A stretch of 64,000 nucleotides of DNA from Candidatus Levyibacteriota bacterium (GCA_963716145.1 OY970292.1:901404-965403), one strand, 5' to 3'; shown: positions 2,775 through 52,156, counted from the stretch's first letter. Numbers and translations: made by a program. Notes: generated from the sequence alone by a model not told the origin.

Positions 2775-3898
2775 ATGGTACGTGTCGCGATAAATGGTTA
2801 TGGAAGAATAGGCAGAGTTGCCCACCGTGTAATCCTACAATGGCATTCTGAGGAGATAGAAGTCGTTGCAATCAATGCAGGCCACTCAACAGACATAAAG
2901 GGCTGGATGTATCTTCTTAAATACGATAGTGTGTATGGCTTGCTACCACAAGATATTAGCGTAAAACCTAACCCAGATGCAGCAGACAAAACTTTACTTG
3001 GACATTTGGTTATATCAGGAAAAGAAATCCCCGTTTATTCGCAAAAAGATCCGAATCTTCTACCATGGAAAGGCCTGAATGTAGATGTTGTTATCGAGTC
3101 TACGGGTCACTTTACATCAGCAGAGCAACTACAATCCCATATCACAGCAGGTGCCAAGGCAGTAGTTCTTTCAGCTCCTGCTAAAGGAGAGGGTGTGCCG
3201 ACATATGTTATCTCTGTAAACGAGACAAATTTCAAGGGAGAGAAAATGATCAACAATGCTTCATGTACCACCAATTGTATAACTCCTGTTGCCAAAATAA
3301 TTGATGCTGCCTTTGGAATTGATAAAGCAATGATGACAACAATTCACGGATACACATCAGACCAGAAGCTTCAGGACGGAGGACACAAAGATTATAGGAG
3401 AGCACGGGCTGCCGGGTTGAACATTGTTCCCACATCAACAGGCGCGACAATTGCGGCTGGTGAGGTGCTGCCGCAATTAAAAGGTGTGTTTGCAGGTTTG
3501 TCAGTACGGGTTCCGGTTCAGTCGGATCACTTTCTGACTTTACATTTTTACTTAAAAAAGAAGTAACGGTTGAGGAAGTAATTGGGGTTTTGGTTAAAGA
3601 AGCAGACAATCCCGTATATAAGGGAATTCTTGCTGTGACCACAGATCCAATTGTTTCATCGGACATTATCGGCAATTCCCACTCAAGCATAGTTGATCTT
3701 TCACTCACGCAAGTGGTTGGAGGTAATATGCTCAAAGTCATCGCCTGGTATGACAATGAATACGGATACGCGAATAGGTTGGTTGAGGAGACGATTATGG
3801 TTGGGCAGCCATCTGCAGCATCTGTTCCACCGACACCAGCTCCAACTGAGTCTACACCAGTTGATCCAAACGCTGCATCACAAGGATCAAGTAGTTGA
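2775..3898 (+). CDS. gap: glyceraldehyde-3-phosphate dehydrogenase, reading frame interrupted by an apparent 1-nt indel near 3505-3516
   Basis: N-terminus VRVAINGYGRIGR (NAD-binding) and the catalytic SCTTNC motif are present. Frame 0 ends at 3566 with an aberrant tail (QSDHFLTLHFYLKKK). The conserved continuation (SLSDFTFLLKKEVTVEEV...WYDNEYGYANR) is in frame 2 from about 3512 and runs to 3898. A low-complexity S/T/P C-terminal tail follows. Confidence 0.8.
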
Positions 3899-5312: not shown

Positions 5313-5365
5313 TTGACACCCAAGATCTAGTGGCATATGATTTTTGTGACACTAGATAACTAGAC
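5313..5365 (+). promoter_or_regulatory. sigma70-like promoter (TTGACA-17-TATGAT) overlapped by two tandem NrdR-box-like palindromes (5317..5332 CACccaagatctaGTG; 5350..5365 CACtagataactaGAC)
   Basis: Two CAC-N10-GTG/GAC 16-bp palindromes lie 33 bp apart start-to-start, overlapping the -35 and the region just downstream of the -10. This is the classic tandem NrdR box arrangement, about 100 bp upstream of nrdR-nrdJ. Confidence 0.55.
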
Positions 5366-5449
5366 AAGTCAGAGCTTAAAGTCTATAATTAAGAAGCAAG
5401 AATTCTTGATTTTGAAGCTAAAATGATAGTTTGATTCTAGATAAATATT

Positions 5450-5908
5450 ATGCATTGTCCATACTGCGGTACAAAAAATTCAGAAGTTGTTGAGACACGG
5501 GAGAGCTCAGATCTTGATTCTATAAGAAGGAGAAGATCATGCATGGACTGCTCCAAGAGATTCACAACTTATGAGAGAGTTGAAAATGTTGCTCTGGTTG
5601 TAATTAAAAGAGATGGAAAAAGAGAGCAATTTAGCCGTGAGAAGCTGGAGCGAGGGCTTCTTAAAGCTTGCGAGAAGACAACTATACCAACCGAGATAAT
5701 TGAAAAGATAGTATCAGAAATAACCCGAGAGCTCCGGGCGCAGGACAGTTTGGAAGTGGAGAGTACAATGATAGGAGATCTGGTTGCCAAGAAGCTTAAA
5801 AAGCTTGATAAAGTCGCTTATATCAGATTTGCCAGTGTATTTAAAAGATTTGTTGATATTGAAGATTTTGAAAAAGAAGTAAAAGGGTTAACGCCCAAAA
5901 GCCTATGA
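5450..5908 (+). CDS. nrdR: transcriptional repressor NrdR
   Basis: MHCPYCGTKNSEVVETRES...RRRRSCMDCSKRFTTYERVE is a zinc ribbon, followed by an ATP-cone domain. It overlaps the nrdJ start by 4 nt. Confidence 0.9.
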   Translation: MHCPYCGTKNSEVVETRESSDLDSIRRRRSCMDCSKRFTTYERVENVALVVIKRDGKREQFSREKLERGLLKACEKTTIPTEIIEKIVSEITRELRAQDSLEVESTMIGDLVAKKLKKLDKVAYIRFASVFKRFVDIEDFEKEVKGLTPKSL

Positions 5909-8309
5909 CACTTGATGGAATAAGACACAAAGTATTTATGGATCGCTACTCTTTGAAAGATGAGGAGGGAGTGGCTACTGAGCAAACACCGGACGCGATG
6001 TGGGCACGGGTCGCACGGGGAATTGCCGAAGCTGAGAAAAAGCCGGATCGTAAAAAATGGGAGAAGGAATTCTACCGCGTGATGGATGAATTCAAATTCG
6101 TTCCCGCGGGACGAATTCTATCGGTGCCGGTACCGGCTATCAGGTTACTTACTTTAACTGTTTTGTTATTCCCTCTCCCAAAGATTCAAGACATGGAATC
6201 CTTGAAGCGCTTGGACAGCTGGTCGAGATTCAGGCCCGTTCAGGTGGAGTTGGCTTAAACATGTCTAGTCTTCGTCCCAAAGGCGCACGGGTTAAAAAAG
6301 TAAATGGAACTTCCTCAGGCCCTGTTAACTGGGCAACTCTTTTTTCAGTCGCAACGCATGACATTGTCCAGCAGGGCGGATCAAGACGCGGAGCAACGAT
6401 GTTGATGCTTTGGGACTGGCATCCTGATATTGAAGAATTCATCACCGTTAAAGAGGATCTTACCAAAATAAACGGTGCCAATTTATCAGTCTGTGTGTCC
6501 GATGCATTCATGGAAGCTGTAAAGCTTGATAAAGATTGGGATCTTGTTTATCCTGATCTGACAGATCCAAAATACGACACGAAATGGAACGGGGAAATTG
6601 ATTTATGGAGAAAAATCGGTGGAAAAGTAATAGTTCATAAGACAATCAAAGCGCGTTATCTCTGGGATCTTATCTGCACCGCTGCCTGGAAATCAGCTGA
6701 ACCGGGCCTACACTTTCTTGAAAGAAGCAACAAAAGGTCAAACACATGGTACTTTGAAAGACTTGTTGCTACCAATCCATGCGGTGAGCAGCCTCTTGGA
6801 GCATGGGCAGTCTGCAACTTGGGCGCAATGAATCTGGCAGCGTATGTAAAAAACGGAGAATTTGATTTTGATAATTTCGGAAAAGACACCAAAGTTGCCA
6901 TGAGGCTTCTGGACAATGTCATAGACCTGACATATTATTTCTTCAAAGAAAACGAGAAATGCTCAAAAGATATTCGCAGGACCGGTCTTGGCATCATGGG
7001 ACTTGGGGACGCGCTTATCAAAATGAAACTCCGCTATGGATCTGAGGAATCATTTCCGATTATAGAAAAAATATTTAAGACATTAAGAGATAGTGCGTAT
7101 GATGCGTCTTCTGATCTCGCAAAAGAAAAAGGTTCTTTCCCATTGTTTGATAAGAAAAAATACCTAAAAGGTTACCACATCAAAGCTTTGCCAAAAAAAC
7201 TTCAGGACAAAATAGCAAAACAGGGAATTCGCAACGCAGTTCTTCTGACAATTGCGCCAACAGGTACAACGGGATTAGTTGCGGGTGTCACATCGGGAAT
7301 CGAGCCGGTCTATGAGTTTATGTTTAAGCGTAAATGGAGGGGTGGGGAGGAGACAATGTATCACCCATTATTTGACGAATGGAGACTTGCCAATCCTGAT
7401 GCAGAGAGGCCTTCCTATTTTGCCAGCGCCAATGACCTGACTCCTCTTGAGCACGCAAAAGTCCAGGCAATTGCACAGGCTTATATCGATTCCTCAATCT
7501 CCAAAACAGTTAACGCGCCAAATTCCCACACAATTGAGGATGTTAAAAATCTTTACATGGCAGCATATGATCTGGGGCTTAAAGGTGTTACTTATATGAG
7601 GGATGGATCAAGACAAGGTGTTTTGGAAAGGATTGTTGAGAAGCCAGTTGAAAAACCAATTGAGGCAGCGCCTGTTATTCCTGTGACACCCCGTATGCCG
7701 CGCCCAATGATGCTGACTGGACTTACTTACAAGACCGACAGTCCATCGGGTAAAGTTTACGTTACTCTAAATCACGACGAGAAAGACAACTTGTTTGAAG
7801 TCTTCATAAATCATGGAAAAAGCGGATCTGATCTTATGGCTCTTGCCGATGCGCTTGGAAGGATGATTTCATTTGTTCTCAGGATTCACAGTCCTGTCCC
7901 AACCCGTGAAAGAGTCCGTGAGATTATCTCAGAGTTAACAGGTATTGGAGGATCACGAAGTGTCGGATTTGGGGAAAACAGAGTCCGTTCACTTCCTGAT
8001 GCAATTGCCAAAGTACTGGCGCGCCATTATGAATTCCGGGTAAATGGAAAGGTTGAGGATAGAAAGCCGGCAAACGGCAATGGGTTGAGCAACGGTCACG
8101 CAATTGACGCGGAGCCAAAAGCTCCTGCTCAGGATTTAACGGACGCGACCCAGCTTCCAATTCCCCAAGCTGAAGAAGTGGTCTTTTCGGCAAATACTTC
8201 CTCATCTTCAACATCACTTTTTGATATTTGTCCTGAGTGCGGATCAAGTAGTCTTGCATATGAAGATGGTTGCCAGAAATGCTACGCATGTGGATACTCC
8301 GCGTGCTAG
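5905..8309 (+). CDS. nrdJ: adenosylcobalamin-dependent (class II) ribonucleotide reductase NrdJ, frame interrupted by an apparent 1-nt indel near 6116-6128
   Basis: ORF 5905..6258 (N-terminus, FVPAGRILS) and ORF 6261..8309 are contiguous in the conserved sequence. The frame-0 read-through from about 6121 gives IGAGTGYQVTYFNCFVIPSPKDSRHGILEALGQLVEIQARSGGVGLNMSSLRPKG, which is conserved class II RNR sequence. The active-site NPCGEQPL motif and a C-terminal CxxC...CxxC zinc ribbon are present. Confidence 0.85.
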
Positions 8310-8498
8310 ATATTATTTGTCTTATTGACAATTTATATCTTAAGTATTATATTGTAAATCAATTAAAGATTAACCGGTCAAAAGGTCCGAAAGCTGTGGA
8401 ACTCAGCGCTATGCCGTAACTGTACAGTCAGATCGCAGACTTTTGATTTTTATTCTATCCTTCGAGCAAAGGAAAAGAAGTCTAAAAAAACTTCTAAA

Positions 8499-8521
8499 CT
8501 TCTCGCTTGAGAAGTTTTTTT
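8499..8521 (+). terminator. rho-independent terminator-like hairpin (cttctc-gctt-gagaag + T7)
   Basis: Perfect 6-bp stem with a 4-nt loop, followed by TTTTTTT. It lies between nrdJ and the DUF4430 gene. Confidence 0.55.
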
Positions 8522-8560
8522 ATTCTTAAGCCTCTTTTGCATGTTGGAAGAAAGATCCAA

Positions 8561-9235
8561 ATGCTAAATTTAAAAAAAATAAAAATAAAATCACCTGTGC
8601 CCAAGTTTCTTGTTTATCCCATCCTGGTATTGGTGTTAATTTTTGCCGGGGCTTTATCGTTTGCTCTGGCGCAAATTTCTGCACCGCAAAGACATGATTT
8701 ATCAGTAAGCAAAACGGTTAAAATAACCAAAAAAGCGACAGAAAATCCTACTCCTACTCAAGATCCAGAAGGTTCAATTAATAATCAAATTTACAAAAGC
8801 GCAAAAGCAACCTCCCAGCAGGTATCTGTCCAGCCTGCAACTGCTTCAAATACTAGTGTATCAGCTACTGCAAGTAATACTTCTTCGGGAAGTTCTAGTC
8901 CTACTCCAACCTCAGCGCCTGCGGCAGTTAACGCTTCGGAAAATAAGGTTACTGTTTCTATAAATGGCGATTCAGGCTTTGAGGTAAAAGTTTCAAGCGG
9001 TGCCAATCAATGTGACGTTCTTAGTAAATCATTGGATCAGGGGAAAATCCAAAGCCTTAACATGCGTTATGACAATAGTCTTGGAAGTAATGCAATTTAT
9101 CAGATTAACGGAATTGGGAAGGATAATTCTGTCTGGTGGACTTATAAAGTAAACGGTCAAGCTCCCAGTCAGGGGTGCAGTAAGGTTGGCGCAAATAACG
9201 GTGACAATGTTGAGTGGAAATACATAGGATCATGA
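8561..9235 (+). CDS. secreted DUF4430-family protein (putative cobalamin-binding, transcobalamin-like fold), S/T-rich linker
   Basis: N-terminal TM/signal segment and a Ser/Thr/Pro low-complexity linker. The C-terminal domain pattern W.Y.VNG...G..L..GD.V.WKY is characteristic of DUF4430. Start chosen at the internal Met after the terminator; the longer ORF starts at 8507. Confidence 0.6.
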   Translation: MLNLKKIKIKSPVPKFLVYPILVLVLIFAGALSFALAQISAPQRHDLSVSKTVKITKKATENPTPTQDPEGSINNQIYKSAKATSQQVSVQPATASNTSVSATASNTSSGSSSPTPTSAPAAVNASENKVTVSINGDSGFEVKVSSGANQCDVLSKSLDQGKIQSLNMRYDNSLGSNAIYQINGIGKDNSVWWTYKVNGQAPSQGCSKVGANNGDNVEWKYIGS

Positions 9236-10551
9236 AGAATTTAAAATTTCTAATTTCTAATTTCAAATTGCCAAAAATAATATTGTGTTTTTGCGTGCTA
9301 CTTATCACTTATCACTTATCATTTATAACCCCAGCGCATGCCGATGCGGTTATAGACAATGGGATTAATTATTTAAAACAAAAACAAGTTCCATCCGGGC
9401 AAATAGACGGTGGAGGATTTAGTGATGCTTCTCCCTGGTCGGCAATTGCATTTGAAATAAGAGATATACATATTGAAGATGTTAAGAATAGCTCCGTTTC
9501 CTTAAAAGATTTTTTCGTAAACAATGTTCCAGGTGATGCATATACGTTGGCAACTAGGATTTTAGTTATTGTCGCAGCAGGAGATGATCCGACGAACTTT
9601 GGAGGAAATAATTATGTACAAAAACTTGAAAGTTTTCATCATGATAGTCAAATAGATAATATATGCATTCTGAATGACGACCTCTTTGGATTACTTGCTC
9701 TTATATCAGCTGGAAATTCATCCGATCAGAATATAAAACAAGATACTTTAAATTTTATTATTGATCATCAAGCAATAGATGGAGGATTTAGTTATTCAGC
9801 TCCATCTACAACTTGTCCTGATTGGGGGACTGATCCTGATACCACTTCGGCTGCGATTCAGGTATTGCAAGCAGCAAAAACGAATGGGTTAACAAATCCT
9901 AAACTCGATGATTCCATAAGTATGGCAAAAGAATATCTACTTGACGATCAGGACGCCGGTGGGGGCTTTTTAGCATTTGGCTCTCCAAGTTCTGATACAA
10001 CAGGATGGGCGTTAATGGCCCTAAATGTTTTGGGTATGCAGGATTCTGAGCAAGCAGCAAAAGCGCGGACCTGGTTAGCATCTCAACAATCACAACCAGA
10101 AGGGGGCTTCTTGTCTTATGGAACTTTAAATTCAACAACTACAGCTCATGCGCTCATTGCTCTTTCCGGATCGGGCTGGTTCTATCGGCCAAGTATTCCT
10201 GTGCCGACTATTTCTGTAGTTTCACCAACGCCAACTCCTACGCCAACAACTTCATCTTCAAGCAGCAACTCATCTACTCCCACTCCAACGCCCACAAATA
10301 CTACAACCCCAACACTACAAGTTAAGAATAAGACAACTTCCGATCTTGTTTCCGATTCTTCTTTTGAAGATCCGCAACCAACTCCTGCGCCTGAAGTTTT
10401 GGGGCAATCAACACAAGAAGTAAAACCTGATATCGATAAAAAACAATTGCTGATTAAAAATTTAACCAGCGGATTTTTACCTCTTCTTTTTGGATTTGGT
10501 CTTTATGTTGTGGTAAGATTTTGGGAGAGGAGGTGGAGAAAAAATGTTTGA
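9232..10551 (+). CDS. prenyltransferase/squalene-oxidase-repeat (terpene-cyclase-like alpha/alpha toroid) surface protein with C-terminal TM anchor
   Basis: Repeated QxxDGGF/DGGW-type motifs (QIDGGGFSD, AIDGGFSYS, QDAGGGF, PEGGF), a P/T/S-rich stalk and a C-terminal hydrophobic anchor. The ATGA start overlaps the upstream stop. The signal peptide is encoded by heptamer repeats. Confidence 0.6.
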   Translation: MKNLKFLISNFKLPKIILCFCVLLITYHLSFITPAHADAVIDNGINYLKQKQVPSGQIDGGGFSDASPWSAIAFEIRDIHIEDVKNSSVSLKDFFVNNVPGDAYTLATRILVIVAAGDDPTNFGGNNYVQKLESFHHDSQIDNICILNDDLFGLLALISAGNSSDQNIKQDTLNFIIDHQAIDGGFSYSAPSTTCPDWGTDPDTTSAAIQVLQAAKTNGLTNPKLDDSISMAKEYLLDDQDAGGGFLAFGSPSSDTTGWALMALNVLGMQDSEQAAKARTWLASQQSQPEGGFLSYGTLNSTTTAHALIALSGSGWFYRPSIPVPTISVVSPTPTPTPTTSSSSSNSSTPTPTPTNTTTPTLQVKNKTTSDLVSDSSFEDPQPTPAPEVLGQSTQEVKPDIDKKQLLIKNLTSGFLPLLFGFGLYVVVRFWERRWRKNV

Positions 10552-11107
10552 ATTATTTATGATTATAGGAGGTGCGCTGTTGCGACTCGTGCCGCATGTT
10601 CCTAATTTTGCACCGGTCGCGGCAACTGCTTTATTTGGTGGAACGTATTTAAAAAAGAAATACGCGATTATAATCCCTATGGGTATTTTGTTTTTATCAG
10701 ATTATTTGCTTTTATATATTAATCCGTTTTCAGAGAAGGTCGTAAATTTTGACAAAGTTTATCCTATTACCGCGATTTTTCATCCAAGTACATTTTATGT
10801 TTGGGGAAGCTTTTTGATAGTAGGTTTTATCGGGCTTTGGCTAAGAAACCATAAGAGCGCTCACAATGTTATTTTAAGTTCGTTGATTTCATCAATACTC
10901 TTTTTTCTAGTTACAAATTTTGGTTATTGGCTTTCCAATAGTTTGTACCCAAAAACATTTGAGGGGCAAATGACAGCATATGTTATGGCGTTGCCATTTT
11001 TCAAATGGACGATTTTGGGGGATTTGTTCTATACAGGAGTATTTTTTGGAGCGTACGAATTTGCGTTAAAAGCAGTAGGTAGAAAAAATGTTGCGGTGAC
11101 GGTTTAA
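10544..11107 (+). CDS. polytopic membrane protein, possible ECF-type substrate-specific (S) component
   Basis: 187 aa with about 5-6 TM helices. The N-terminal LRLVPHVPNFAPVAATALFGG motif resembles S-component-like families. It sits between the B12-binding-like proteins and pduO. Confidence 0.4.
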   Translation: MFELFMIIGGALLRLVPHVPNFAPVAATALFGGTYLKKKYAIIIPMGILFLSDYLLLYINPFSEKVVNFDKVYPITAIFHPSTFYVWGSFLIVGFIGLWLRNHKSAHNVILSSLISSILFFLVTNFGYWLSNSLYPKTFEGQMTAYVMALPFFKWTILGDLFYTGVFFGAYEFALKAVGRKNVAVTV

Positions 11108-11111
11108 ATTT

Positions 11112-11651
11112 ATGCCGATTTATACAAGAACAGGAGATAGAGGTACAACTTCGCTTTTTGATACAACTCGGGTTCTCAAATCAAGCGCTCGGGTTGAGAC
11201 ATACGGAACGATTGATGAGCTTAACAGCACTATCGGCGCGGTAATTGCACATCTTGAGGATTCAACAGGGCTTGTTGAGAAAGAATTGTTACAAATTCAG
11301 AATGATCTTTTGGAAATTGGCGCAGCTCTTGCCAATCCAAAAGCAGTACCTATCAAAGGGCTTAACAAGCGTCCCACAGATTTTGAAAAACTGATTGATA
11401 AGATGACGGATAAACTTCCGGAACTTCGAAATTTTATCTTACCAGGAGGTAGTAAGGCCGGATCGCTTCTTCACATCGCAAGAACTATCGCCAGACGGGC
11501 AGAACGAATAATTGTCGGCCTAATCCAAGACGAAAAAGTGGATCAGGATATCATAATTTATGTAAATAGACTTTCTGATCTGCTATTCACAATGGCACGT
11601 TTTGTAAATCAGGCGGAAAAGAAAAAAGAGACAGTTTGGAAAAAGAGATAA
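11112..11651 (+). CDS. pduO: ATP:cob(I)alamin adenosyltransferase, PduO-type
   Basis: MPIYTRTGDRGTTSLFDTTRVLKSSARVETYGTIDELNSTIG matches the PduO/MMAB N-terminal signature. Length about 180 aa. Confidence 0.8.
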   Translation: MPIYTRTGDRGTTSLFDTTRVLKSSARVETYGTIDELNSTIGAVIAHLEDSTGLVEKELLQIQNDLLEIGAALANPKAVPIKGLNKRPTDFEKLIDKMTDKLPELRNFILPGGSKAGSLLHIARTIARRAERIIVGLIQDEKVDQDIIIYVNRLSDLLFTMARFVNQAEKKKETVWKKR

Positions 11652-11710: not shown

Positions 11711-12007
11711 GTGTTACAATCAGGATATATGTCAGCGGAAACAGTAGTTGTGCACAAAGAAGTAGCAGTGGGGCATGCAGCAGATCAGCATTTATCTAAC
11801 AGGAGACAAGAGTTGAATCAAAGATTAAGAAAATGGGGAAAGTGGTTCGTCGGAGGTCTTGCCGTTGGATTGGCTGGACTTGGACTATCCCTTGCAGCTC
11901 CTGGAGTAGGAACTGCAGTTATGTTGGTGGGGAGTGGTATGGAGGCTGTAGGAGCTGTCGGAATTATAGGTAATATCCTTAAAGGCGCAAGCCAGAAAAA
12001 TAAATAG
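11711..12007 (+). CDS. small Gly/Ala-rich membrane peptide (pilin-like or bacteriocin-like, hypothetical)
   Basis: 98 aa: a hydrophilic leader, then GxxxG-rich hydrophobic segments (FVGGLAVGLAGLGLSLAAPGVGTAVMLVGSGMEAVGAVGIIG). Confidence 0.35.
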   Translation: MLQSGYMSAETVVVHKEVAVGHAADQHLSNRRQELNQRLRKWGKWFVGGLAVGLAGLGLSLAAPGVGTAVMLVGSGMEAVGAVGIIGNILKGASQKNK

Positions 12008-12021
12008 ACCACCTCTCAAAT

Positions 12022-12363
12022 ATGCAGCAAAATTATAAAGATACCCTTTTAGAACTCCTGACAACCATTAACTACCCCAATAATAAAGAAAAATTTATTG
12101 CAGAATTTGAAGACTTAAATAGGGTTGAGGTAATTGCCAATATTTTGGAAAAACTACCCAAGGATATACAAGAAAAAATACAAGCCGGTGATAATGATTA
12201 TGAGAACATTAAAAAATATATTCACCAGGATGAGTATTTAGCTGAAATAACCAAAGTTTCAGCAGAAGCACTGAAAAAATTTATTGAAGTAATTTCACCA
12301 CTTCTCACCTTACAGCAGAAACAACAAGTAGATAAGATAGTACATAATTACCCAAGATTGTAA
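12022..12363 (+). CDS. hypothetical protein
   Basis: 113-aa acidic/helical ORF, co-directional and tightly spaced with its neighbours. Confidence 0.35.
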   Translation: MQQNYKDTLLELLTTINYPNNKEKFIAEFEDLNRVEVIANILEKLPKDIQEKIQAGDNDYENIKKYIHQDEYLAEITKVSAEALKKFIEVISPLLTLQQKQQVDKIVHNYPRL

Positions 12364-12418
12364 TCTTTTGTTAGGATTTTTTATTGCCTCTTGAGCCCCC
12401 ACATGCTAAGATTATTTT

Positions 12419-13090
12419 ATGGATAGTAGTGCCCCAAATTCACAGCAGAATACAGATTCATCAGCTGTTCAACCAGCTCAGCCAATTGTTCCAAATCGTG
12501 GAGGAATACCGATTGGTCCTACTCAACCAGCTTCGTCTGAGCTTCAGATAGTAGATCCAATCTTACCGGTTGCGGAATCTGCTGCACAAAAAGATGTGCA
12601 AAGTATAAGTCAGAATGATTCCATTTCCCTTATGCCATCTCAATCCCCAGCAACTCCTTCCGAAAAGCCGGCAAATGACCAAAATGTTGTAACTCAAGCA
12701 CCAGTTTCTCAGCAGGTAAGTTCTACAAAAAACCGCGAACATGAACCCTCATCAGCGCCAGCACCTGATATTGTAAAAATGACTGATTCTGAAATAATTC
12801 AGGAAGAAAAAGTAGTTGAAAAGGAAATTGAAGCAATGGTTGAGAAAACCCCGGATTCGGAAAAACCAAAACTTTCATCAGAGGTAAAGGCCGCGGGGGT
12901 AGAACATGCAAAAGAAGATACACCGATGCCTCCTCTTCCGACAGGCGTCAAACCATTGCCTATGAGTTATGATGAAGCGCAATCAATACGGAAAAAATAC
13001 AAATTAATACTGAAAGATTCAGTTGCCTGGCTATCAACTTTGATAATGTATCACTGGAAAAAAATTGGATTTAAAAATAAAGAGACATAA
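12419..13090 (+). CDS. hypothetical protein with P/Q/S-rich low-complexity N-terminal region
   Basis: 223-aa ORF with no recognisable motif. It ends 3 nt before the start of the large ATPase gene. Confidence 0.35.
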   Translation: MDSSAPNSQQNTDSSAVQPAQPIVPNRGGIPIGPTQPASSELQIVDPILPVAESAAQKDVQSISQNDSISLMPSQSPATPSEKPANDQNVVTQAPVSQQVSSTKNREHEPSSAPAPDIVKMTDSEIIQEEKVVEKEIEAMVEKTPDSEKPKLSSEVKAAGVEHAKEDTPMPPLPTGVKPLPMSYDEAQSIRKKYKLILKDSVAWLSTLIMYHWKKIGFKNKET

Positions 13091-13093
13091 AGT

Positions 13094-15484
13094 ATGCAAG
13101 TACAATCTTTTTTAAGCCAAAATTCACTTATAATAAAGCTTTTTTTTGGTGTTTTGGGATTTGCCGCGGTAGCAGGATTTCTTATGTTGCTCTTTTATGT
13201 TTTTCTGATGTGGATAAGGCACCGCAAAAGGGAATCAGAAGCACTTAATTCAACTCTTCTTCAAGTGACAGTACCAAGGGATAATGAGATCAAAGTTGAT
13301 GCTGCTGAGCAGATGTTTTCAGCATTATATGCAATACGCAAAACCTATGAAAAGGACAGACTGTCTTTTTTCAAATCCCAGCCGCATCTTTCATTTGAAA
13401 TTGTAGGATTGCCTGGGGATATCCGTTTTTACGTCAATGTTCCAAACAATCTGCGGGATTTTGTTGAAAAACAAATTAACGGTTCATATCCTGATGCCGA
13501 AATAATTCCTGTTACTGAGCCTGCAGCTAAGCAAAGAGAGGGTGGAGTTCTGGGTACAGAATACAATATTTTTTCAAAAGATGGAAAGGTAGCTTTTGTG
13601 TCCCTTAGGCTGCACCACGCAAATCACATGCCGATAAAAGTATACAAGGATTTGGCTGTTGATTCTTTATCTTCAATCACCTCAGTCCTTGCCAAAATGG
13701 GAGAAGGCGAGGGGGCAGCTCTTCAGATTGTGATAAGTCCGGCCTCATCCAAATGGAAAAAAGAAGGTCGCAGTTTTATTGGGCACACAAAAAAGATGGA
13801 AGCAAATCCTGAGAAAGCAAGTTATAAGTCCGACGCTAAAGAGCTTGAGGCAATAGAGAGTAAAATCCAAAAACCGGGATTTGATACTGTTATCCGGATT
13901 GTGGTCTCAGCCAAAACATATCATGCTGCAAAAGCCCACAAAGATAATATAAAAGGAGCATTCAGTCAGTTTACTCTCCATAATTCCTTTCACAGGAACA
14001 AAAATTGGATTAAGGGGTGGTTCATGAATGATTTTATTTACCGTTATTTTCCAATGTGGGGACAGACTTCTGTCCTGACGAGTGAAGAATTGGCAACTAT
14101 TTATCATTTTCCAAATAAAAGTGTGTATACAACTCCCGGAATTCACTGGTTGACTGCCAAGCGAGCGCCGGCACCCTCAAATTTGCCGACAAGTGGTCTT
14201 TATCTGGGAAAGAGCAGTTATCGAGGCATATCCCGCGGAATATTTCAAGGACGCGAAGACCGTCGTCGCCACACCTATATAATCGGAAAAACAGGAACAG
14301 GAAAAACAGAAATGCTCAAAACCATGATCATGCAGGATATAAATAACGGTGAAGGACTTGCGGTTATTGATCCTCACGGAGATTTGGTTGAGGATATTCT
14401 GCGTATGATACCCCCTAAAAGGGCTGAGGAGGTTATTCTCTTTGATCCATCAGATACTGAGCGCCCGATGGGTTTTAATATGCTCTCAGCAGACACCGAG
14501 CAGCAAAAGCATTTCGTTGTAAACTCAATAATCGGTCTTATGTATAAGCTTTTCGATCCGAATAAAACCGGTATCATTGGTCCTCGTTTTGAACATGCTA
14601 TTCGTAACGCGATGCTTACAGTGATGTATGAGAAAGGGAGTACCTTTATTGAAGTTGTGCGTGTTTTGACTGACCAGGCGTTTGTTCAGGAGTTATTGCC
14701 CAAAGTTCAGGATCCGATAATCAGACGTTACTGGACAGATCAGATTGCACAAACCAGTGATTTCCACAAATCCGAGGTTTTGGATTATATTACCTCCAAA
14801 TTCGGGCGTTTTGTTACCAATAAAATGATCAGAAATATTATTGGTCAGTCTGATAGCTCTTTTGAATTCCGTAAAGTCATGGATGAGGGTAAAATTCTTC
14901 TCATCAATCTTTCCAAAGGAAAAATTGGTGAGGAAAACGCTAACTTTTTAGGATTGGTTTTGGTTCCAAAAATTTTGGTTGCTGCTATGAGCAGGCAGGA
15001 TATTCCCAATCAGGAAGACAGACGGGACTTTTTTCTCTATGTTGATGAGTTTCAGAATTTCGCAACACCGGACTTCGCCCAAATTCTCTCAGAAGCACGT
15101 AAATACCGTCTCAATTTGATTGTTGCCAATCAGTTTATCGGTCAGATGGAGGAGGAGATCAAAAATGCTATTTTTGGAAACGTAGGAACAATAGCGTCGT
15201 TTAGAGTCGGTGTAACTGATGCAAATTATCTCCAGCATGAATTCCAACCGCTATTTAATGAAAACGATCTTATCAATGTCGATAAGTATAATGCATATAT
15301 GCGGACTATTGTTAATGGTGAACCTGCTGCGCCTTTTTCGCTTGATACCACCAAAGATGTTTCCAAGGAGAAAGCCCTCCAAAACGACCGTGTTGCTGAG
15401 TTGGTTCGCGAACTCTCCCGTCTTAAGTATGGAAAGAGTGTTGAAACAGTTGAAACAGAAATTGCTACTAGAGCGAGATTATAA
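13094..15484 (+). CDS. VirB4/VirD4/HerA-FtsK superfamily P-loop ATPase with N-terminal TM segment (type IV secretion/conjugation-like)
   Basis: N-terminal TM helix. Walker A GKTGTGKT sits mid-protein, followed by a VIDPHGDL motif and a Walker B-like FFLYVDEFQNF. Length 796 aa. Confidence 0.6.
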   Translation: MQVQSFLSQNSLIIKLFFGVLGFAAVAGFLMLLFYVFLMWIRHRKRESEALNSTLLQVTVPRDNEIKVDAAEQMFSALYAIRKTYEKDRLSFFKSQPHLSFEIVGLPGDIRFYVNVPNNLRDFVEKQINGSYPDAEIIPVTEPAAKQREGGVLGTEYNIFSKDGKVAFVSLRLHHANHMPIKVYKDLAVDSLSSITSVLAKMGEGEGAALQIVISPASSKWKKEGRSFIGHTKKMEANPEKASYKSDAKELEAIESKIQKPGFDTVIRIVVSAKTYHAAKAHKDNIKGAFSQFTLHNSFHRNKNWIKGWFMNDFIYRYFPMWGQTSVLTSEELATIYHFPNKSVYTTPGIHWLTAKRAPAPSNLPTSGLYLGKSSYRGISRGIFQGREDRRRHTYIIGKTGTGKTEMLKTMIMQDINNGEGLAVIDPHGDLVEDILRMIPPKRAEEVILFDPSDTERPMGFNMLSADTEQQKHFVVNSIIGLMYKLFDPNKTGIIGPRFEHAIRNAMLTVMYEKGSTFIEVVRVLTDQAFVQELLPKVQDPIIRRYWTDQIAQTSDFHKSEVLDYITSKFGRFVTNKMIRNIIGQSDSSFEFRKVMDEGKILLINLSKGKIGEENANFLGLVLVPKILVAAMSRQDIPNQEDRRDFFLYVDEFQNFATPDFAQILSEARKYRLNLIVANQFIGQMEEEIKNAIFGNVGTIASFRVGVTDANYLQHEFQPLFNENDLINVDKYNAYMRTIVNGEPAAPFSLDTTKDVSKEKALQNDRVAELVRELSRLKYGKSVETVETEIATRARL

Positions 15485-48002: not shown

Positions 48003-48980
48003 ATGATCATTAATGTTGAAAATTTAACTAAATATTACCGTGTTCACCAAAAAGAGCCGGGGCTCTCCGGTTCACTTAAATCCCTTTTTAACCGTAAATA
48101 CTATGATGCCAAGGCAGTTGATGATATTTCATTCTCTATAGAAGAAGGAGAGCTGATTGGGTTTATCGGTCCAAATGGTGCCGGAAAAACAACTACGCTA
48201 AAATGTTTGTCCGGATTACTCTATCCTACAAGTGGCAAAGTTGAAGTATTGGGATACACTCCGTTTGAGCGTAAGCATCCGTTTCTCAAGCAAATCTCAC
48301 TTGTGATGGGCCAAAAAAATCAACTTTGGTGGGACCTTCCGGCAATTGATTCATTTCTCCTTAACAAAGAAATCTATGAAATAACAGACACAGTCTACAA
48401 AAAAACTCTTGATGAATTGGTTGAGCTTTTAGATGTTCAGGATATTTTACAAGTTCAGGTCCGGAAATTATCTCTGGGACAAAGAATGAAATGTGAACTG
48501 ATTGCAGCGCTAATACACAATCCTAAAATTCTTTTTCTTGACGAGCCGACAATTGGTTTGGACGTGGTGATGCAGCAGAAACTGCGTGATTTTATAAAAC
48601 AATATAATAAGCGTTACAATGCGACAATTCTTTTAACTTCTCACTATATGAAAGATGTTGAGCAGCTTTGTGAACGGGTGATCATCATAGATCATGGAAA
48701 AATTCTTTATGATGGAAAGCTTGAGGATATTGTCAAAAAATATGTTAAGAATAAGACTCTTAGTATTATTTTCGCAAAACCTGTGGAGGAAGAAAAACTG
48801 GAAAAGCTTGGTAAAGTTTTGGAAATTGACGGACCCAAGGTCATACTTTCAGTACCACGGGAAAAATCAAATCACGTTGCGGGGAAACTCCTTGAGAATT
48901 TTTCAGTTGAGGATCTAAATATCGAAGAAGCAAATATAGAAGAAATAATACGGGATGTGTTTTCAAAACACAAAAGTTAA
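48003..48980 (+). CDS. ABC transporter ATP-binding protein
   Basis: Walker A GPNGAGKTT, signature LSLGQRMK, and Walker B ILFLDEPT. Confidence 0.85.
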   Translation: MIINVENLTKYYRVHQKEPGLSGSLKSLFNRKYYDAKAVDDISFSIEEGELIGFIGPNGAGKTTTLKCLSGLLYPTSGKVEVLGYTPFERKHPFLKQISLVMGQKNQLWWDLPAIDSFLLNKEIYEITDTVYKKTLDELVELLDVQDILQVQVRKLSLGQRMKCELIAALIHNPKILFLDEPTIGLDVVMQQKLRDFIKQYNKRYNATILLTSHYMKDVEQLCERVIIIDHGKILYDGKLEDIVKKYVKNKTLSIIFAKPVEEEKLEKLGKVLEIDGPKVILSVPREKSNHVAGKLLENFSVEDLNIEEANIEEIIRDVFSKHKS

Positions 48981-48982
48981 CT

Positions 48983-49777
48983 ATGCGCTATGTCAGAATA
49001 TTTTTATTACATTTTCAAGATCTTCTAGCTCACAGAAGCCGCTCAATTGTTTACGTTTTTACCTATGTTTTCAATGCCTTGCTTTTTTTAGCTCTTATAA
49101 GAGGAGTATTCGCAAATCATAATTCTATTGGCGGCTGGACGTTGTCAACAGTGACAAGTTACTATTTTTTATTGATTCTGGCCCCGGCTTTTTTAATGAC
49201 ACATCCTGAAACAGCAATCCTTAGGGATGACATCGAAAAGGGTGAGTTGGCGAGCCGGCTTCTGAAACCGTTTCCTTATTACTGGCAAAGATTTTATCGC
49301 GAAATTCCTTATCGAATATTCCAAGGAGTACTCGCGATATTTATTTATCTTACATTATCAATTGTGTTTGGAAATTTTTTAAAGGTAAATTTGTCACTGG
49401 TGCAAATAGTATTAATTACAATAATTCTTATTTTAGCCTACATGATTTCATTTACGTTTAAAATGATTATCGCTATTATTGCACTTTGGACTACAGATCT
49501 TAGGGGAATTCAGGAATTTGTCGAAGTGATAATACTAATTTTCTCAGGTTTTATAATGCCGGTTAATTTATTACCGCATATACTAGAAAAAATTGCTTAT
49601 TTTTTACCTTTTTCCTATATGATATATTTCCCAGTTATCGCCATACAAGGAAAGTTAACTATTAATGCAATACTATCAATAGCTGGAGTCCAGATAATCT
49701 GGCTCACAGTATTGGTATTTATATTTCGTTATCAGTGGAGACGAGGACTCATAAACTTTACGGATTTGGGTCATTAG
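48983..49777 (+). CDS. ABC-2 family transporter permease (paralog 1 of 4)
   Basis: 6-TM hydrophobic protein immediately after the ATPase gene. Confidence 0.6.
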   Translation: MRYVRIFLLHFQDLLAHRSRSIVYVFTYVFNALLFLALIRGVFANHNSIGGWTLSTVTSYYFLLILAPAFLMTHPETAILRDDIEKGELASRLLKPFPYYWQRFYREIPYRIFQGVLAIFIYLTLSIVFGNFLKVNLSLVQIVLITIILILAYMISFTFKMIIAIIALWTTDLRGIQEFVEVIILIFSGFIMPVNLLPHILEKIAYFLPFSYMIYFPVIAIQGKLTINAILSIAGVQIIWLTVLVFIFRYQWRRGLINFTDLGH

Positions 49778-49781
49778 TAAC

Positions 49782-50573
49782 ATGAAAAAATATTTCAACA
49801 TTTACATTACCTTGCTTCGTCTTAATTACCACAGAGCTTTATCTCAAAGAGCGGATTTTTTTGCTGGACTTTTTGGGAGTATTTCATGGGCTATTTTTTC
49901 AGTTGTCGCGATTTATATATTGAGCGCAAGAGCCTCGTCTGTTTACGGATGGAATAGGCAGGAGCTGTTTATTCTCATAGGAGTATTTAATATATTGGTT
50001 GGAGGGATTTTCAGAACATTATTTGCCCGCAATTTCAATAATTTTCCACAGTTAATGCGCTATGGAGAGCTAGATAGTTTTCTACTCAAACCGATAGATA
50101 CACAGTTTGCTATCAGCACACAACGAGTGAGCTTGCATGGTGGTCCAAGAATATTTATCTCAATCTTGTTTACTTTTTTTGTGCTTTTTCAAGCTCATTT
50201 ATCAATCACTTTTTCTAGCATTTTAGCATTTTCCATTCTTGCAGTTTTTGGCTTGATTGCTATGTATGCTTTTTGGTTTTTAGTTTTGACCTTGACAGTT
50301 TGGCTTCCTGATGTATATAATCTCGAAGAAATTCTCTATTCAACAGATAGTCTCACGCGTTATCCTCCGCAAATTCTTCCTGCAATGAAAATTCTCTTAT
50401 TTTATGTTTTTTTCCCTTTTACACTTGTTGTAAGCACGCCAACAAAAGCGCTTTTAAATAAGTTAAATACCATAGATGTAATTGTACTAATCGGTGTGGC
50501 TTTTGGCCTTTTATTTTTATCGAGAAAGTTTTGGAAATTCGCGCTTCGCTATTATACAAGTGCGAGTGGATAA
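49782..50573 (+). CDS. ABC-2 family transporter permease (paralog 2 of 4)
   Basis: 6-TM protein with C-terminal ...FWKFALRYYTSASG, shared with paralog 4. Confidence 0.6.
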   Translation: MKKYFNIYITLLRLNYHRALSQRADFFAGLFGSISWAIFSVVAIYILSARASSVYGWNRQELFILIGVFNILVGGIFRTLFARNFNNFPQLMRYGELDSFLLKPIDTQFAISTQRVSLHGGPRIFISILFTFFVLFQAHLSITFSSILAFSILAVFGLIAMYAFWFLVLTLTVWLPDVYNLEEILYSTDSLTRYPPQILPAMKILLFYVFFPFTLVVSTPTKALLNKLNTIDVIVLIGVAFGLLFLSRKFWKFALRYYTSASG

Positions 50574-50574
50574 T

Positions 50575-51369
50575 ATGAAAAAATATTTTAAAGTTATCAG
50601 TAGCACATTTGATGAAATTGCGACATATAGATTTAATTTCATGATGTGGAGACTCCGTATAGTCTTACAACTTCTGACAATATATTTTTTGTGGTTAACA
50701 GTAACACCCGCAAGCGGACAGCTTTTTGGATACTCACGCTCACTTATTCTTACTTACGTTCTGGGAGCCTCACTTTTAACTAGTATTGTAATATCCACTC
50801 GGACGCAGGAGATAGGCGAGAACATAAATAGCGGAGATTTATCGCATTTTTTATCAAAACCGTGGAGCTATTTTGGATATTGGTTTGCGCGTGACATAGG
50901 GGACAAAGCATTTAATATTTTTTTTGCTGTAATTGAATTAACGATATTATTTTTTATTCTAAAACCTACGTTGTTATTGCAGACCGATTTGAGTATCCTG
51001 TTATTAAGTATTATTGCAATATTTTTTGCTGTGCTAATTAATTTCTTCATAGGTTGTTTGTTGGGGATGATTGGTTTTTGGAGTCCTGAGGTTTGGGCCC
51101 CGAGGTTTATTTTCTTTATTTTAATTGGATTTTTTGCGGGCAGTGCATTTCCCCTGGATATATTTCCAGGTTGGGCGCAAAACATTTTTCAATTTTCTCC
51201 ATTCACTTACCTTATATATTTTCCGTTAAAAATCTACTTGAATAAATTCACAAGCGATCAAATTATAACCGGTTTTATAATTGCTTCCATATGGCTGATA
51301 TTATTATTTCTTGCGACTAAATTTGTGTGGAGTAAGGGACTAAAAATATACAGTAGTCAAGGGAATTAA
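50575..51369 (+). CDS. ABC-2 family transporter permease (paralog 3 of 4)
   Basis: The start is set at MKKYFKV, the same N-terminal motif as paralog 2. 6 TM helices. Confidence 0.55.
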   Translation: MKKYFKVISSTFDEIATYRFNFMMWRLRIVLQLLTIYFLWLTVTPASGQLFGYSRSLILTYVLGASLLTSIVISTRTQEIGENINSGDLSHFLSKPWSYFGYWFARDIGDKAFNIFFAVIELTILFFILKPTLLLQTDLSILLLSIIAIFFAVLINFFIGCLLGMIGFWSPEVWAPRFIFFILIGFFAGSAFPLDIFPGWAQNIFQFSPFTYLIYFPLKIYLNKFTSDQIITGFIIASIWLILLFLATKFVWSKGLKIYSSQGN

Positions 51370-51370
51370 T

Positions 51371-52156
51371 ATGATAAGAAAATATATAAAAATTTGGTGG
51401 GTGCTTACGCTGGCGACATCGCAAATTTCTTTTCAATCACGTTTTGGCGCTGTTTTATTTTTGATTGGAAAAATTTTGCGCTTCTCTTTTTTCCTATTCT
51501 TCTTAGTTGTTTTAGTCACCAAAACAAAAGCAATTGCGGGATATACGCTTTGGGAAATTGTTTTCTTCTACGCAACATTTAATTTACTTGATGCTCTGCC
51601 TCAGTTTTTTTTCAGAAATGTTTATAGATTCAGACAGCAAGTGCTAAACGGGTATTTCGATAACTTGCTAATAAAACCTTTACCATCTCTTTTCCATCCA
51701 TTATTCGGAGGATCCGATGTGCTCGATTTATTTATTCTAATTGCGTCTATATTTTTTATTGTATTTGCCGGAATACGGATTGGAAACATAACATTTTTTA
51801 ATACTATGGCTTATTTAATTTTGCTCACCAACGGATTTTTGATTGCCACTGGATTTCACATTTTTGTTTTGGGAAGTGGAATTTTGACAACAGCTGTTGA
51901 TAACACTGTTATGTTGTATCGAGATTTGACTCAGATGGGGCGTCTTCCAATTGAGGTTTACCAAGAGCCGCTTCGTGGAATTATTACCTTTGTCGTGCCG
52001 GTTGGAATTATGATGTCTTTTCCGCCCAAAGTTTTTTTGGGGTCATTATCTTGGCAAGGGATAGGCATCGCATTATTAGTTGGGGCGGGAGCTCTAATGT
52101 TCAGCATAAGATTTTGGAAATATGCACTAAAACACTATACCAGCGCGAGTAGTTAA
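51371..52156 (+). CDS. ABC-2 family transporter permease (paralog 4 of 4)
   Basis: 6-TM protein with C-terminal FWKYALKHYTSASS. Confidence 0.6.
   Translation: MIRKYIKIWWVLTLATSQISFQSRFGAVLFLIGKILRFSFFLFFLVVLVTKTKAIAGYTLWEIVFFYATFNLLDALPQFFFRNVYRFRQQVLNGYFDNLLIKPLPSLFHPLFGGSDVLDLFILIASIFFIVFAGIRIGNITFFNTMAYLILLTNGFLIATGFHIFVLGSGILTTAVDNTVMLYRDLTQMGRLPIEVYQEPLRGIITFVVPVGIMMSFPPKVFLGSLSWQGIGIALLVGAGALMFSIRFWKYALKHYTSASS

Follow-up and report, generated by a model that had tools for sequence, protein, structure and literature searches.

How might a tiny-genome, CPR-type bacterium secure the cofactor of a cobalamin-dependent ribonucleotide reductase (RNR)? The question is raised by six genes lying in the window, the whole 64-kb stretch of DNA that was analysed, which a sequence-only reading had described as one compact module running from 5313 to 11651: nrdR, nrdJ, and the genes for a DUF4430 protein, a surface α6/α6-toroid protein, a DUF6580 membrane protein and a PduO-type adenosyltransferase. 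All six were confirmed in that order and at those coordinates, co-directional on the + strand, to which all positions below refer. In the 250-nt spacer between nrdJ and the DUF4430 gene, a promoter-like site is followed by a cobalamin riboswitch, a hairpin with a CGAGCA loop and a terminator. The module therefore consists of two units: in the first, NrdR boxes precede nrdR and nrdJ, and in the second the other four genes form an operon under B12 sensing.

The start coordinate given in the sequence-only reading, 5313, falls on promoter-like hexamers (5313-5341 and 5361-5389, span 5313..5389; 11/12 matches each in a promoter scan) overlapped by two NrdR-box-like 16-mers, ACCCAAGATCTAGTGG (5318-5333) and ACACTAGATAACTAGA (5349-5364), spaced 31 bp apart. 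Shuffled sequences gave a best box score of 14.2 ± 1.2, a level which the first box exceeds (18 of 22) and against which the second is weak (14 of 22). Tandem boxes 31-32 bp apart also lie 5' of nrdR in at least nine relatives. The gene itself (5450..5908) encodes the RNR-gene transcriptional repressor with its Zn ribbon and ATP-cone (TIGR00244, 193.8 bits against a cut-off of 124.65; PF22811, PF03477), so that an NrdR protein and tandem 16-bp boxes about 31-32 bp apart before RNR genes, the combination that marks an NrdR regulon, are both present.

The adjoining nrdJ (5905..8309) encodes an AdoCbl-dependent class II RNR with TSCPD and a C-terminal Zn ribbon (TIGR02504; PF00317, PF02867, PF12637). 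This assignment, already made from the sequence, stands: the 682-aa part alone reaches 508 bits with TIGR02504 (cut-off 400), and the translation shows the NPCGEQPL motif and a C-terminal CxxC...CxxC. The gene is nevertheless present in the assembly as two ORFs (5905-6258 and 6261-8309), its frame being broken by a 1-nt indel near 6118-6122; the two frames join as ...FVPAGRILS/GAGTGYQVTYFNCFV.... The frameshift probably arose in assembly, since GAPDH is split as well and the breaks in the relative L002 fall at other sites.

The second unit opens with a sigma-70-like promoter (TTGACA-17-TATATT, 8325..8353; 11/12 in the promoter scan, by consensus match only), followed by a divergent member of the AdoCbl-II type of cobalamin riboswitch aptamers (8371..8448). 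With the Rfam model RF01689 this aptamer aligned along the whole model and scored 24.6 bits, short of the 36.5-bit gathering score (E = 0.0011-0.029, the lower value in a 271-nt search). A covariance model (R2), built leaving out the window sequence and its three closest relatives, found the window aptamer as its one match in the 64 kb (45.1 bits, E = 1e-12). Eleven homologous copies from relatives exceed the RF01689 gathering score (36.8-53 bits), and at the locus L006 a match to RF01482 (54 bits) lies directly 5' of DUF4430 / toroid::DUF4430 / DUF6580. The window copy shares with AdoCbl-II the core GCCGYAACUGU...AGUCAGA and the four-helix layout, but in it and in three close relatives the GGGUAA/AAAACC junctions become GGUCCGAAA/AUCGCAGAC, a replacement that brings the window copy under the Rfam gathering score. 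In the riboswitch alignment, 81-85% of cells were paired (31-45% with slid partners), the covariation score was 0.40-0.53 (0.04-0.18 in slid controls), and double-sided changes in the helices numbered 125-302, well in excess of what the slid controls gave. The covariation supports the aptamer structure, and the core and covarying helices are common to bona fide AdoCbl-II members.

Downstream of the aptamer lies the hairpin UCCUU-CGAGCA-AAGGA (8458..8473), whose conserved loop motif (YGAGCH, mostly CGAGCA) recurs 3' of the aptamer in 46 of the 56 riboswitch copies from relatives. It resembles the hairpin that has the regulatory role in cobalamin riboswitches of class II, and is probably the P13/L13-like regulatory hairpin of this one. 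An intrinsic-terminator-like hairpin with a 9-bp stem followed by a U-run (8496..8524, terminator scan) comes next; a hairpin and U-run stand 3' of the aptamer in most relatives, and this element is likely the expression platform. Thermodynamic folding of the leader revealed no clear anti-terminator, so the OFF-switch logic stays a proposal. Cobalamin binding by this RNA and its control of expression are predicted.

The conservation of the locus was assessed in 82 related loci, all except L002 and L006 collected via DUF6580 alone. DUF4430 lies immediately 5' of DUF6580 in 50 of these, whereas the toroid gene was found in 27; nrdJ and PduO were found in 35 and 28, respectively. This gene order is far beyond chance, and it is seen again across many CPR lineages, recurring in dozens of relatives, as the sequence-only reading had anticipated.

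The first gene of the operon (8561..9235, with an alternative GTG start at 8597) encodes the DUF4430 protein (PF14478, 41.3 bits against a gathering score of 23.8, E = 2e-10). The sequence-only reading had assigned the family on a W.Y.VNG..GD.VEWKY-type pattern, and the protein indeed contains WWTYKVNG...GDNVEWKY. Hydropathy and composition give an N-terminal membrane anchor, a stalk rich in S/T/A/P and a C-terminal transcobalamin-β-like (SLBB) domain. Against the PDB, the only matches of the CPR DUF4430 profile at E < 0.01 were the β-domains of TCN1 (haptocorrin), TCN2 (transcobalamin) and GIF (intrinsic factor), with E values of 5.5e-6 to 4e-4 for these mammalian domains, and 3u7z, one uncharacterised bacterial protein.

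The small membrane protein (10544..11107) had been likened to S-components, and this proved apt: it belongs to DUF6580 (PF20221, 165 bits) and has the ECF S-component fold. The family is uncharacterised and comprises about 3,700 clusters at 50% identity; its invariant residues include R14, H18, N21, D53, T124 and N125. Most of its members come from CPR bacteria. A canonical Cobalamin riboswitch (71-117 bits) adjoins DUF6580 in all but one of 11 non-CPR loci, and the link between the two spans five phyla and includes the unrelated Ignavibacteria, Bacteroidetes, Planctomycetes and Omnitrophota. Among five ORFs scanned next to non-CPR DUF6580 genes, four are TonB-dependent receptors, three upstream (Ignavibacteria) and one downstream (Planctomycetes); the fifth, in the Bacteroidetes locus L078, is tryptophan synthase alpha. 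From its fold and genomic context we propose DUF6580 as the cobalamin translocator; it would seem to represent a type of B12 importer not described before.

The protein might instead be an ordinary group-II ECF S-component that docks on a shared EcfT/EcfAA' encoded elsewhere, making import ATP-driven. We regard this as a possible but rather unlikely alternative. A single-query phmmer search, of low sensitivity, detected an EcfT homologue within ±8 kb of DUF6580 in none of 80 loci, and ABC ATPases were matched in three of them, never adjacent to DUF6580. The window holds no EcfT/EcfAA' module and, in line with what had been read from its sequence, no BtuFCD: its sole ABC transporter (48003-52156) is of the ABC-2 type. 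Moreover, in diderms DUF6580 pairs with TonB-dependent receptors, the same setting by which BtuM, which works without a module, was defined. We give roughly even chances to the reading that the DUF6580 proteins are a hitherto unrecognised family of cysteine-less cobalamin transporters independent of an ECF module, which would be fed by a split, membrane-tethered transcobalamin-like receptor (DUF4430 and toroid) in monoderm CPR bacteria or by a TonB-dependent receptor in diderms, with uptake driven by trapping through the co-transcribed PduO.

The surface pair and DUF6580 could also handle another tetrapyrrole or an incomplete corrinoid, such as heme, cobinamide or other cobamides. A homologous β/α pair of L. 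sakei, associated with an ECF transporter, has been linked experimentally to heme uptake (10.1101/864751), and the relative L029 carries CobS and a histidine phosphatase by the module, a hint that the lower ligand of salvaged corrinoids may be remodelled. Nevertheless, the cobalamin riboswitch directly upstream, PduO in the same operon and the adjacent NrdJ all speak against another ligand, as does the association of DUF6580 with cobalamin riboswitches in five phyla, nor does the locus show an evident function that uses heme; we consider this reading improbable. The pair had been called functionally undefined in the sequence-only reading. It is not entirely so: besides the heme link, SLBB and toroid proteins were predicted to scavenge B12 by Burroughs et al. 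in 2007 (PMC1796856).

Cobalamin capture at the surface would also involve the second protein of the operon (9232..10551), the start of whose gene overlaps the DUF4430 stop codon (ATGA). It consists of a signal peptide, the toroid, a T/P/S-rich stalk and a C-terminal membrane anchor. As to the prenyltransferase-type repeats noticed earlier, the single sequence falls just below the Prenyltrans gathering score (25.4 bits against 26.5), and the family profile matches squalene-hopene cyclase (SHC) with E = 1e-28, which indicates membership of the superfamily of class II terpene cyclases and prenyltransferases. Foldseek searches with an AF2 model (pLDDT 84) likewise gave class II terpene cyclases as best matches; the transcobalamin α-domain was also matched (E = 3.6e-5), as one of many toroid matches, the protein being nearer to the cyclases. 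Neither DxDD nor DDxxD occurs in the window protein, and any DxDD is present in only 9 of 57 family members. Natural toroid/DUF4430 fusions exist (P0065, P0069 and P0070), and in L003 the pair occurs together with a full ECF T/AA'/S set. That the toroid is an envelope enzyme or adhesin of this superfamily merely sharing the operon, with DUF4430 alone binding B12, would suit its far closer profile match to SHC than to any cobalamin binder and its occurrence in fewer loci than DUF4430, which makes it dispensable in many lineages, but this is the most doubtful of the readings, given that the protein is extracytoplasmic and devoid of both motifs, always lies between DUF4430 and DUF6580 or is fused to DUF4430, and completes a toroid-plus-β architecture that is that of transcobalamin (PMC1796856). 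We also considered a single-chain eukaryotic cobalamin binder (PF01122, Cobalamin_bind) and rejected it: neither the DUF4430 nor the toroid protein matched PF01122 at E ≤ 0.01, the domains reside on two polypeptides, and the likeness of the toroid is at fold level only.

The last gene (11112..11651) encodes the PduO-type ATP:cob(I)alamin adenosyltransferase that had been expected (TIGR00636, 193.6 bits against a cut-off of 108.45; PF01923, E = 5e-57). The analysis turned up no reductase for cob(III)alamin or cob(II)alamin. What is established comprises the identities of the genes, the conserved riboswitch, the fold of the S-component type, the homology of the β-domain and the synteny, and we think it likely that the two linked units together run the B12 economy of the cell, one being the NrdR-controlled RNR and the other a riboswitch-led operon for capture, import and adenosylation. 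The promoter overlapped by tandem NrdR boxes would drive nrdR and the AdoCbl-dependent nrdJ. In the second unit, transcription would run from the promoter at about 8325 through the AdoCbl-II-type switch, the CGAGCA hairpin and the terminator into four translationally coupled genes, the switch presumably letting it through when cobalamin is scarce. DUF4430, with its N-terminal anchor, and the toroid, with its C-terminal anchor, would capture corrinoid at the surface on flexible S/T/P-rich stalks; homology, the fusions and the 2007 prediction suggest that together they form a transcobalamin-like clamp split into two halves. DUF6580 would then carry the corrinoid across the membrane, likely by toppling, as proposed for BtuM. 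Its adenosylation by PduO would trap it in the cell and provide both the cofactor of NrdJ and the ligand of the riboswitch, by which the AdoCbl product may shut the operon off. The capture, import and adenosylation route first read from the sequence is thus supported, with the addition of a cobalamin riboswitch that had been missed, directly 5' of DUF4430 in the window and in relatives. Together with the riboswitch association of DUF6580 in unrelated phyla, this ties the locus to cobalamin far more strongly than that reading could show. Its further points, that NrdJ would be the only dNTP source, that corrinoids are probably not synthesised and that no import energizer is present, apply to the 64 kb covered here out of a 1.14-Mb genome. 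If correct, it would give many CPR bacteria a route to the cofactor of their class II RNR.

Three known systems resemble parts of this scheme. BtuM of Thiobacillus denitrificans (PDB 6FFV, 8OVV, 8C7P) is a stand-alone S-component-like B12 transporter whose fold is alike in DUF6580; it co-localises with the adenosyltransferase gene btuR, metabolic trapping has been proposed there, and an invariant, essential Cys80 ligates cobalt (PMC6072759). In contrast to BtuM, which is found in Proteobacteria, DUF6580 occurs mainly in CPR bacteria, and in the window genes for surface binding proteins come before it. No sequence similarity between DUF6580 and BtuM could be detected, as phmmer and profile hmmsearch against PDB sequences gave no match to BtuM or to any solved S-component at E ≤ 10. 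Cys80 has no counterpart, as the window protein contains no cysteine and the best cysteine column among 57 homologues reaches 12%.

The SLBB and toroid systems associated with ECF transporters (Burroughs et al., 2007; Lsa1839/Lsa1840 of L. sakei) likewise combine a secreted or anchored β-domain with a toroid, side by side or fused, in hosts without B12 synthesis, and are predicted to sandwich B12 as transcobalamin does. They differ in having CbiO/CbiQ-type ECF modules and a classical S-component, whereas here there is DUF6580 and no ECF module in the locus, and the operon is riboswitch-controlled, ends in PduO and lies beside NrdJ. The idea of DUF4430 and the toroid as a B12 scavenger was thus already known; the assignment of DUF6580 and the compact CPR module are new.

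Finally, the DUF4430 β-domain is homologous at the sequence-profile level to that of transcobalamin, intrinsic factor and haptocorrin, and the α6/α6 fold of the toroid superposes on the transcobalamin α-domain. Unlike in these mammalian binders, the two domains reside on separate membrane-tethered polypeptides, encoded in the order β then α. If the proposed route is correct, it would be a prokaryotic counterpart of the hand-off from transcobalamin to its receptor in animals.

All six co-directional genes that the sequence-only reading had placed at 5313-11651 are present, as judged by profile matches: nrdR (TIGR00244, 194 bits), the class II reductase gene nrdJ (TIGR02504, 508 bits, with Ribonuc_red_lgN/lgC and TSCPD), and genes for a DUF4430 protein (8561-9235; PF14478, E 2e-10), a toroid protein (9232-10551; Prenyltrans at 25.4 bits, slightly below the gathering score), a DUF6580 membrane protein (10544-11107; PF20221, 165 bits) and a PduO-type adenosyltransferase (TIGR00636, 194 bits), the DUF4430 and PduO assignments being borne out by their own profiles. 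The last four genes, separated in order by overlaps of 4 nt (ATGA) and 8 nt and by a gap of 4 nt, overlap or almost abut and were therefore read as a single operon. The class II reductase is the sole ribonucleotide reductase seen at these loci. The window has a G+C content of about 39%, and its gene content (including DUF5667, DsbD-like, FtsH, RecA and ATP-dependent ligase genes), together with all close protein matches, points to a genome of the CPR (Patescibacteria), a group of ultra-reduced, mostly uncultured symbionts.

The start of the module at 5313 falls on a pair of promoter-like sites and on two 16-mers, 31 bp apart, that resemble NrdR boxes; at least nine relatives likewise have a 31-32-bp tandem of such boxes 5' of nrdR. 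The module is therefore made of two units, nrdR-nrdJ, which is NrdR-sensed, and the salvage operon, which is B12-sensed. Within the first unit, a single-base indel at about 6118-6122 divides nrdJ, frame A ending ...FVPAGRILSVP and frame B reading SIGAGTGYQVTYFNCFV.... The GAPDH gene (2775-3898) is also split, by a 1-nt indel near 3515-3525, into ORFs 2775-3566 and 3590-3898; it is intact (425 aa) at the related locus L002, where nrdR and nrdJ are split too, at positions other than those of the window. Because of these further splits, which suggest indel errors of assembly, we read the nrdJ split in the same way and rejected a programmed frameshift or a pseudogene as the leading reading.

A genuine cobalamin riboswitch, which the sequence-only reading had overlooked, very probably lies in the 250 nt that separate nrdJ from the DUF4430 gene. 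This spacer carries a near-consensus promoter (8325-8353), an AdoCbl-II aptamer match that is full-length yet stays below threshold (8378-8446; 24.6 bits, with the gathering score at 36.5; E 0.0011-0.029), and a 9-bp hairpin with a U-run (8496-8524). An Rfam scan of the whole window at gathering thresholds returned tRNAs only and no riboswitch, and the element surfaced solely under an E-value threshold. In 80 genomic loci fetched via DUF6580 for comparison, together with the window, the core GCCG[CT][AT]ACUG...AGUCAGA occurs at about 45 places, nearly all directly 5' of DUF4430/DUF6580 genes or just 3' of PduO. A structure computed by RNAalifold on a MAFFT alignment of 38 aptamers, in which the subgroups were not in register at P1 and P3, therefore recovered only 7 pairs and was set aside. 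It was replaced by a hand-drawn structure of 18 pairs in four helices, after the Rfam AdoCbl-II layout, with slid and shuffled controls. On the plain MAFFT alignment of the 38 copies, 81% of cells were paired versus 33-45% with slid partners, and double-sided changes numbered 125 versus 25-69 in the slid controls; in a model-fitted alignment of 73 copies, which favours the structure by construction, the values were 85.5% and 302. With the window copy and its three nearest relatives withheld from its construction, a covariance model hit a single site in the 64 kb (8371-8448, 45.1 bits, E ~1e-12). Among the relatives' copies, 11 exceed Rfam's own AdoCbl-II threshold, and at L006, a Magasanikbacteria locus, an above-threshold AdoCbl riboswitch lies directly before DUF4430, toroid::DUF4430 and DUF6580 genes.

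A hairpin with a CGAGCA-type loop follows the aptamer in 46 of 56 copies (8458-8473 in the window); in most copies a terminator comes next, its U-run often touching the start codon. In several relatives the CCCGAG of the hairpin is complementary to the 5' arm of the terminator, and this complementarity agrees with an OFF switch, inferred from the relatives, whereby the hairpin, its docking stabilised by ligand, would free the terminator. Minimum free energy folding of the window leader, with or without P1 forced, gave no clean alternation of terminator and anti-terminator.

Conservation of gene order was borne out across CPR lineages, where nrdR / nrdJ / (riboswitch) / DUF4430 / (toroid) / DUF6580 / PduO recurs. 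The full order is found in MAGs labelled Levybacteria, Woykebacteria, Parcubacteria, Saccharibacteria, Shapirobacteria (where nrdR, nrdJ and PduO lie on the opposite strand) and further CPR lineages. Among 82 related loci, many of them on truncated contigs, nrdJ is found in 35, nrdR in 27 and PduO in 28; DUF4430 lies directly 5' of DUF6580 in 50, and the toroid is found in 27.

Many relatives carry a second AdoCbl-II riboswitch 3' of PduO, before a protein of 360-560 aa that has no Pfam match and in some cases ends in a CxxC...CxxC ribbon (L007:9172-11020, L008:7130-8856, L022:9112-10711, L029:5803-7288, L030:9059-10600, L038:9134-10370, L046:9023-10591, L049:4600-6124 and L068:8993-10195). 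This riboswitch-regulated protein is absent from the window, where ORFs of 98 and 113 aa lie directly 3' of PduO. In the Levyibacteriota locus L029, CobS (cobalamin-5-phosphate synthase) and a CobC-like histidine phosphatase come right after it (7289-8586), a hint that some CPR bacteria attach or remodel the lower ligand of the corrinoids they salvage. The two short window ORFs open a block of four (11711-15484). The first product is a glycine-rich membrane protein of 98 aa, the second has 113 aa, the third is P/Q-rich (223 aa), and the fourth, at 796 aa, is a TraG/VirD4-like coupling ATPase with TrwB_AAD_bind and T4SS-DNA_transf matches. The order of this block is kept in L002, and the block is wholly or partly kept in L007, L008, L022, L038, L046, L049, L053 and L068. 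Another Patescibacteria contig has an Rfam group I intron match (L017:14215-14418, 83 bits) some 7 kb 3' of its B12 module.

In the DUF4430 protein, a stalk of some 90 residues rich in S, A, T and P joins a hydrophobic N-terminal anchor to the C-terminal domain. Searched against the whole PDB, the CPR DUF4430 profile matched solely the beta-domains of haptocorrin (E 5.5e-6), transcobalamin and intrinsic factor, and the DUF4430 structure 3u7z. The toroid protein carries a signal peptide and an alpha6/alpha6 toroid (model pLDDT >90 at most positions from 40 to 320), and a stalk rich in T, P and S leads to its C-terminal transmembrane helix. Its profile matches squalene-hopene cyclase (E 1e-28), and it has neither DxDD nor DDxxD. 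A specifically transcobalamin-like toroid was not upheld, as Foldseek placed class II terpene cyclases first and the transcobalamin alpha-domain at rank 24 (E 3.6e-5), among generic alpha/alpha toroids; the case for a split transcobalamin therefore rests on beta-domain homology, natural fusions and the literature. DUF4430-toroid fusion proteins do exist (P0065, P0069 and P0070), one of them encoded in an operon that also specifies CbiQ, a double ABC ATPase, an ECF S-component and another DUF4430 protein. The pair, which the sequence-only reading had called recurring and functionally undefined, does recur, but the architecture was already read in 2007 as a B12 scavenger in non-producers (PMC1796856). 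In L. sakei, separate beta and alpha proteins that go with an ECF transporter were later tied to heme uptake (10.1101/864751). On balance, we slightly favour a clamp formed by the toroid and DUF4430 proteins.

Despite the absence of the terpene-cyclase catalytic DxDD, an LNDDxFG motif (N148, D149, D150) is near-invariant in 57 toroid homologues and may be a ligand-contact or structural motif. DUF4430 itself occurs in two subtypes (L012, L017, L028, L033, L037, L041, L044, L046, L053 and others): the long form contains Cys and, as in the window, accompanies the toroid, whereas the short one, at some 140 aa (DALTLLK...INGR.AD...EYWAFY.NG), lies directly between nrdJ and DUF6580, without a toroid.

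DUF6580 is probably a cobalamin translocator; that it transports without need of an ECF module is a more tentative proposal, with the chances close to even. The family comprises about 3,700 clusters at 50% identity (E <= 1e-10), is labelled 'putative transport protein' by NCBI, and yielded no mention in the searchable literature. Single-sequence and profile searches against PDB chains gave no match, and, unlike these, fold comparison alone was informative. Invariant residues include R14, P17, H18, N21, D53, T124, N125, Y135, D160 and Y163. Outside the CPR, a canonical Cobalamin riboswitch (RF00174, 71-117 bits) adjoins DUF6580 in 10 of 11 loci: the order is riboswitch, TonB-dependent receptor, DUF6580 in Ignavibacteria (receptor Pfam-confirmed at three loci) and DUF6580, riboswitch, TonB-dependent receptor in Planctomycetes and Omnitrophota (receptor confirmed in L083), while in one Bacteroidetes genome the riboswitch is immediately 5' of DUF6580. 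No EcfT homologue was found near DUF6580 in any locus searched, and the window was confirmed to lack ECF A/T components and BtuCD, its sole ABC system being of the ABC-2 type. This system (48003-52156) is unusual in having four paralogous ABC2_membrane_6 permease genes after its ATPase gene.

The best-supported reading is riboswitch-gated capture, import and adenosylation that would supply NrdJ, with AdoCbl or a related cobalamin closing the loop at the RNA; reduction to cob(I)alamin would be a step without an assigned component in this scheme. If the CPR class II reductase needs scavenged B12, the B12 supply of hosts or neighbours would be a hard dependency, which could steer CPR cultivation. 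The module also offers a compact natural test system for the 2007 prediction that bacterial beta-domain and toroid proteins make a transcobalamin-like clamp, and a concrete, readily testable function is proposed for a domain with thousands of members.

The building blocks each belong to already known or predicted classes, so the result extends them and comes as no surprise. Apparently not yet described in the searchable literature are a connection between DUF6580 and B12, the pairing of DUF6580 with a split transcobalamin-like receptor instead of an ECF module, and a compact, CPR-wide module next to NrdJ. BtuM, the stand-alone S-component-like B12 transporter, was identified by the same context reasoning, from its co-localisation with btuB and the adenosyltransferase gene btuR. 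An identity of DUF6580 with BtuM is ruled out, as the two share no sequence similarity, even by profile, and the invariant cobalt-ligating Cys80 of BtuM (PMC6072759) has no counterpart in DUF6580, whose window member is devoid of cysteine. DUF6580 suggests a second, chemically different lone-S-component route for B12, one that does without the cobalt-ligating cysteine.
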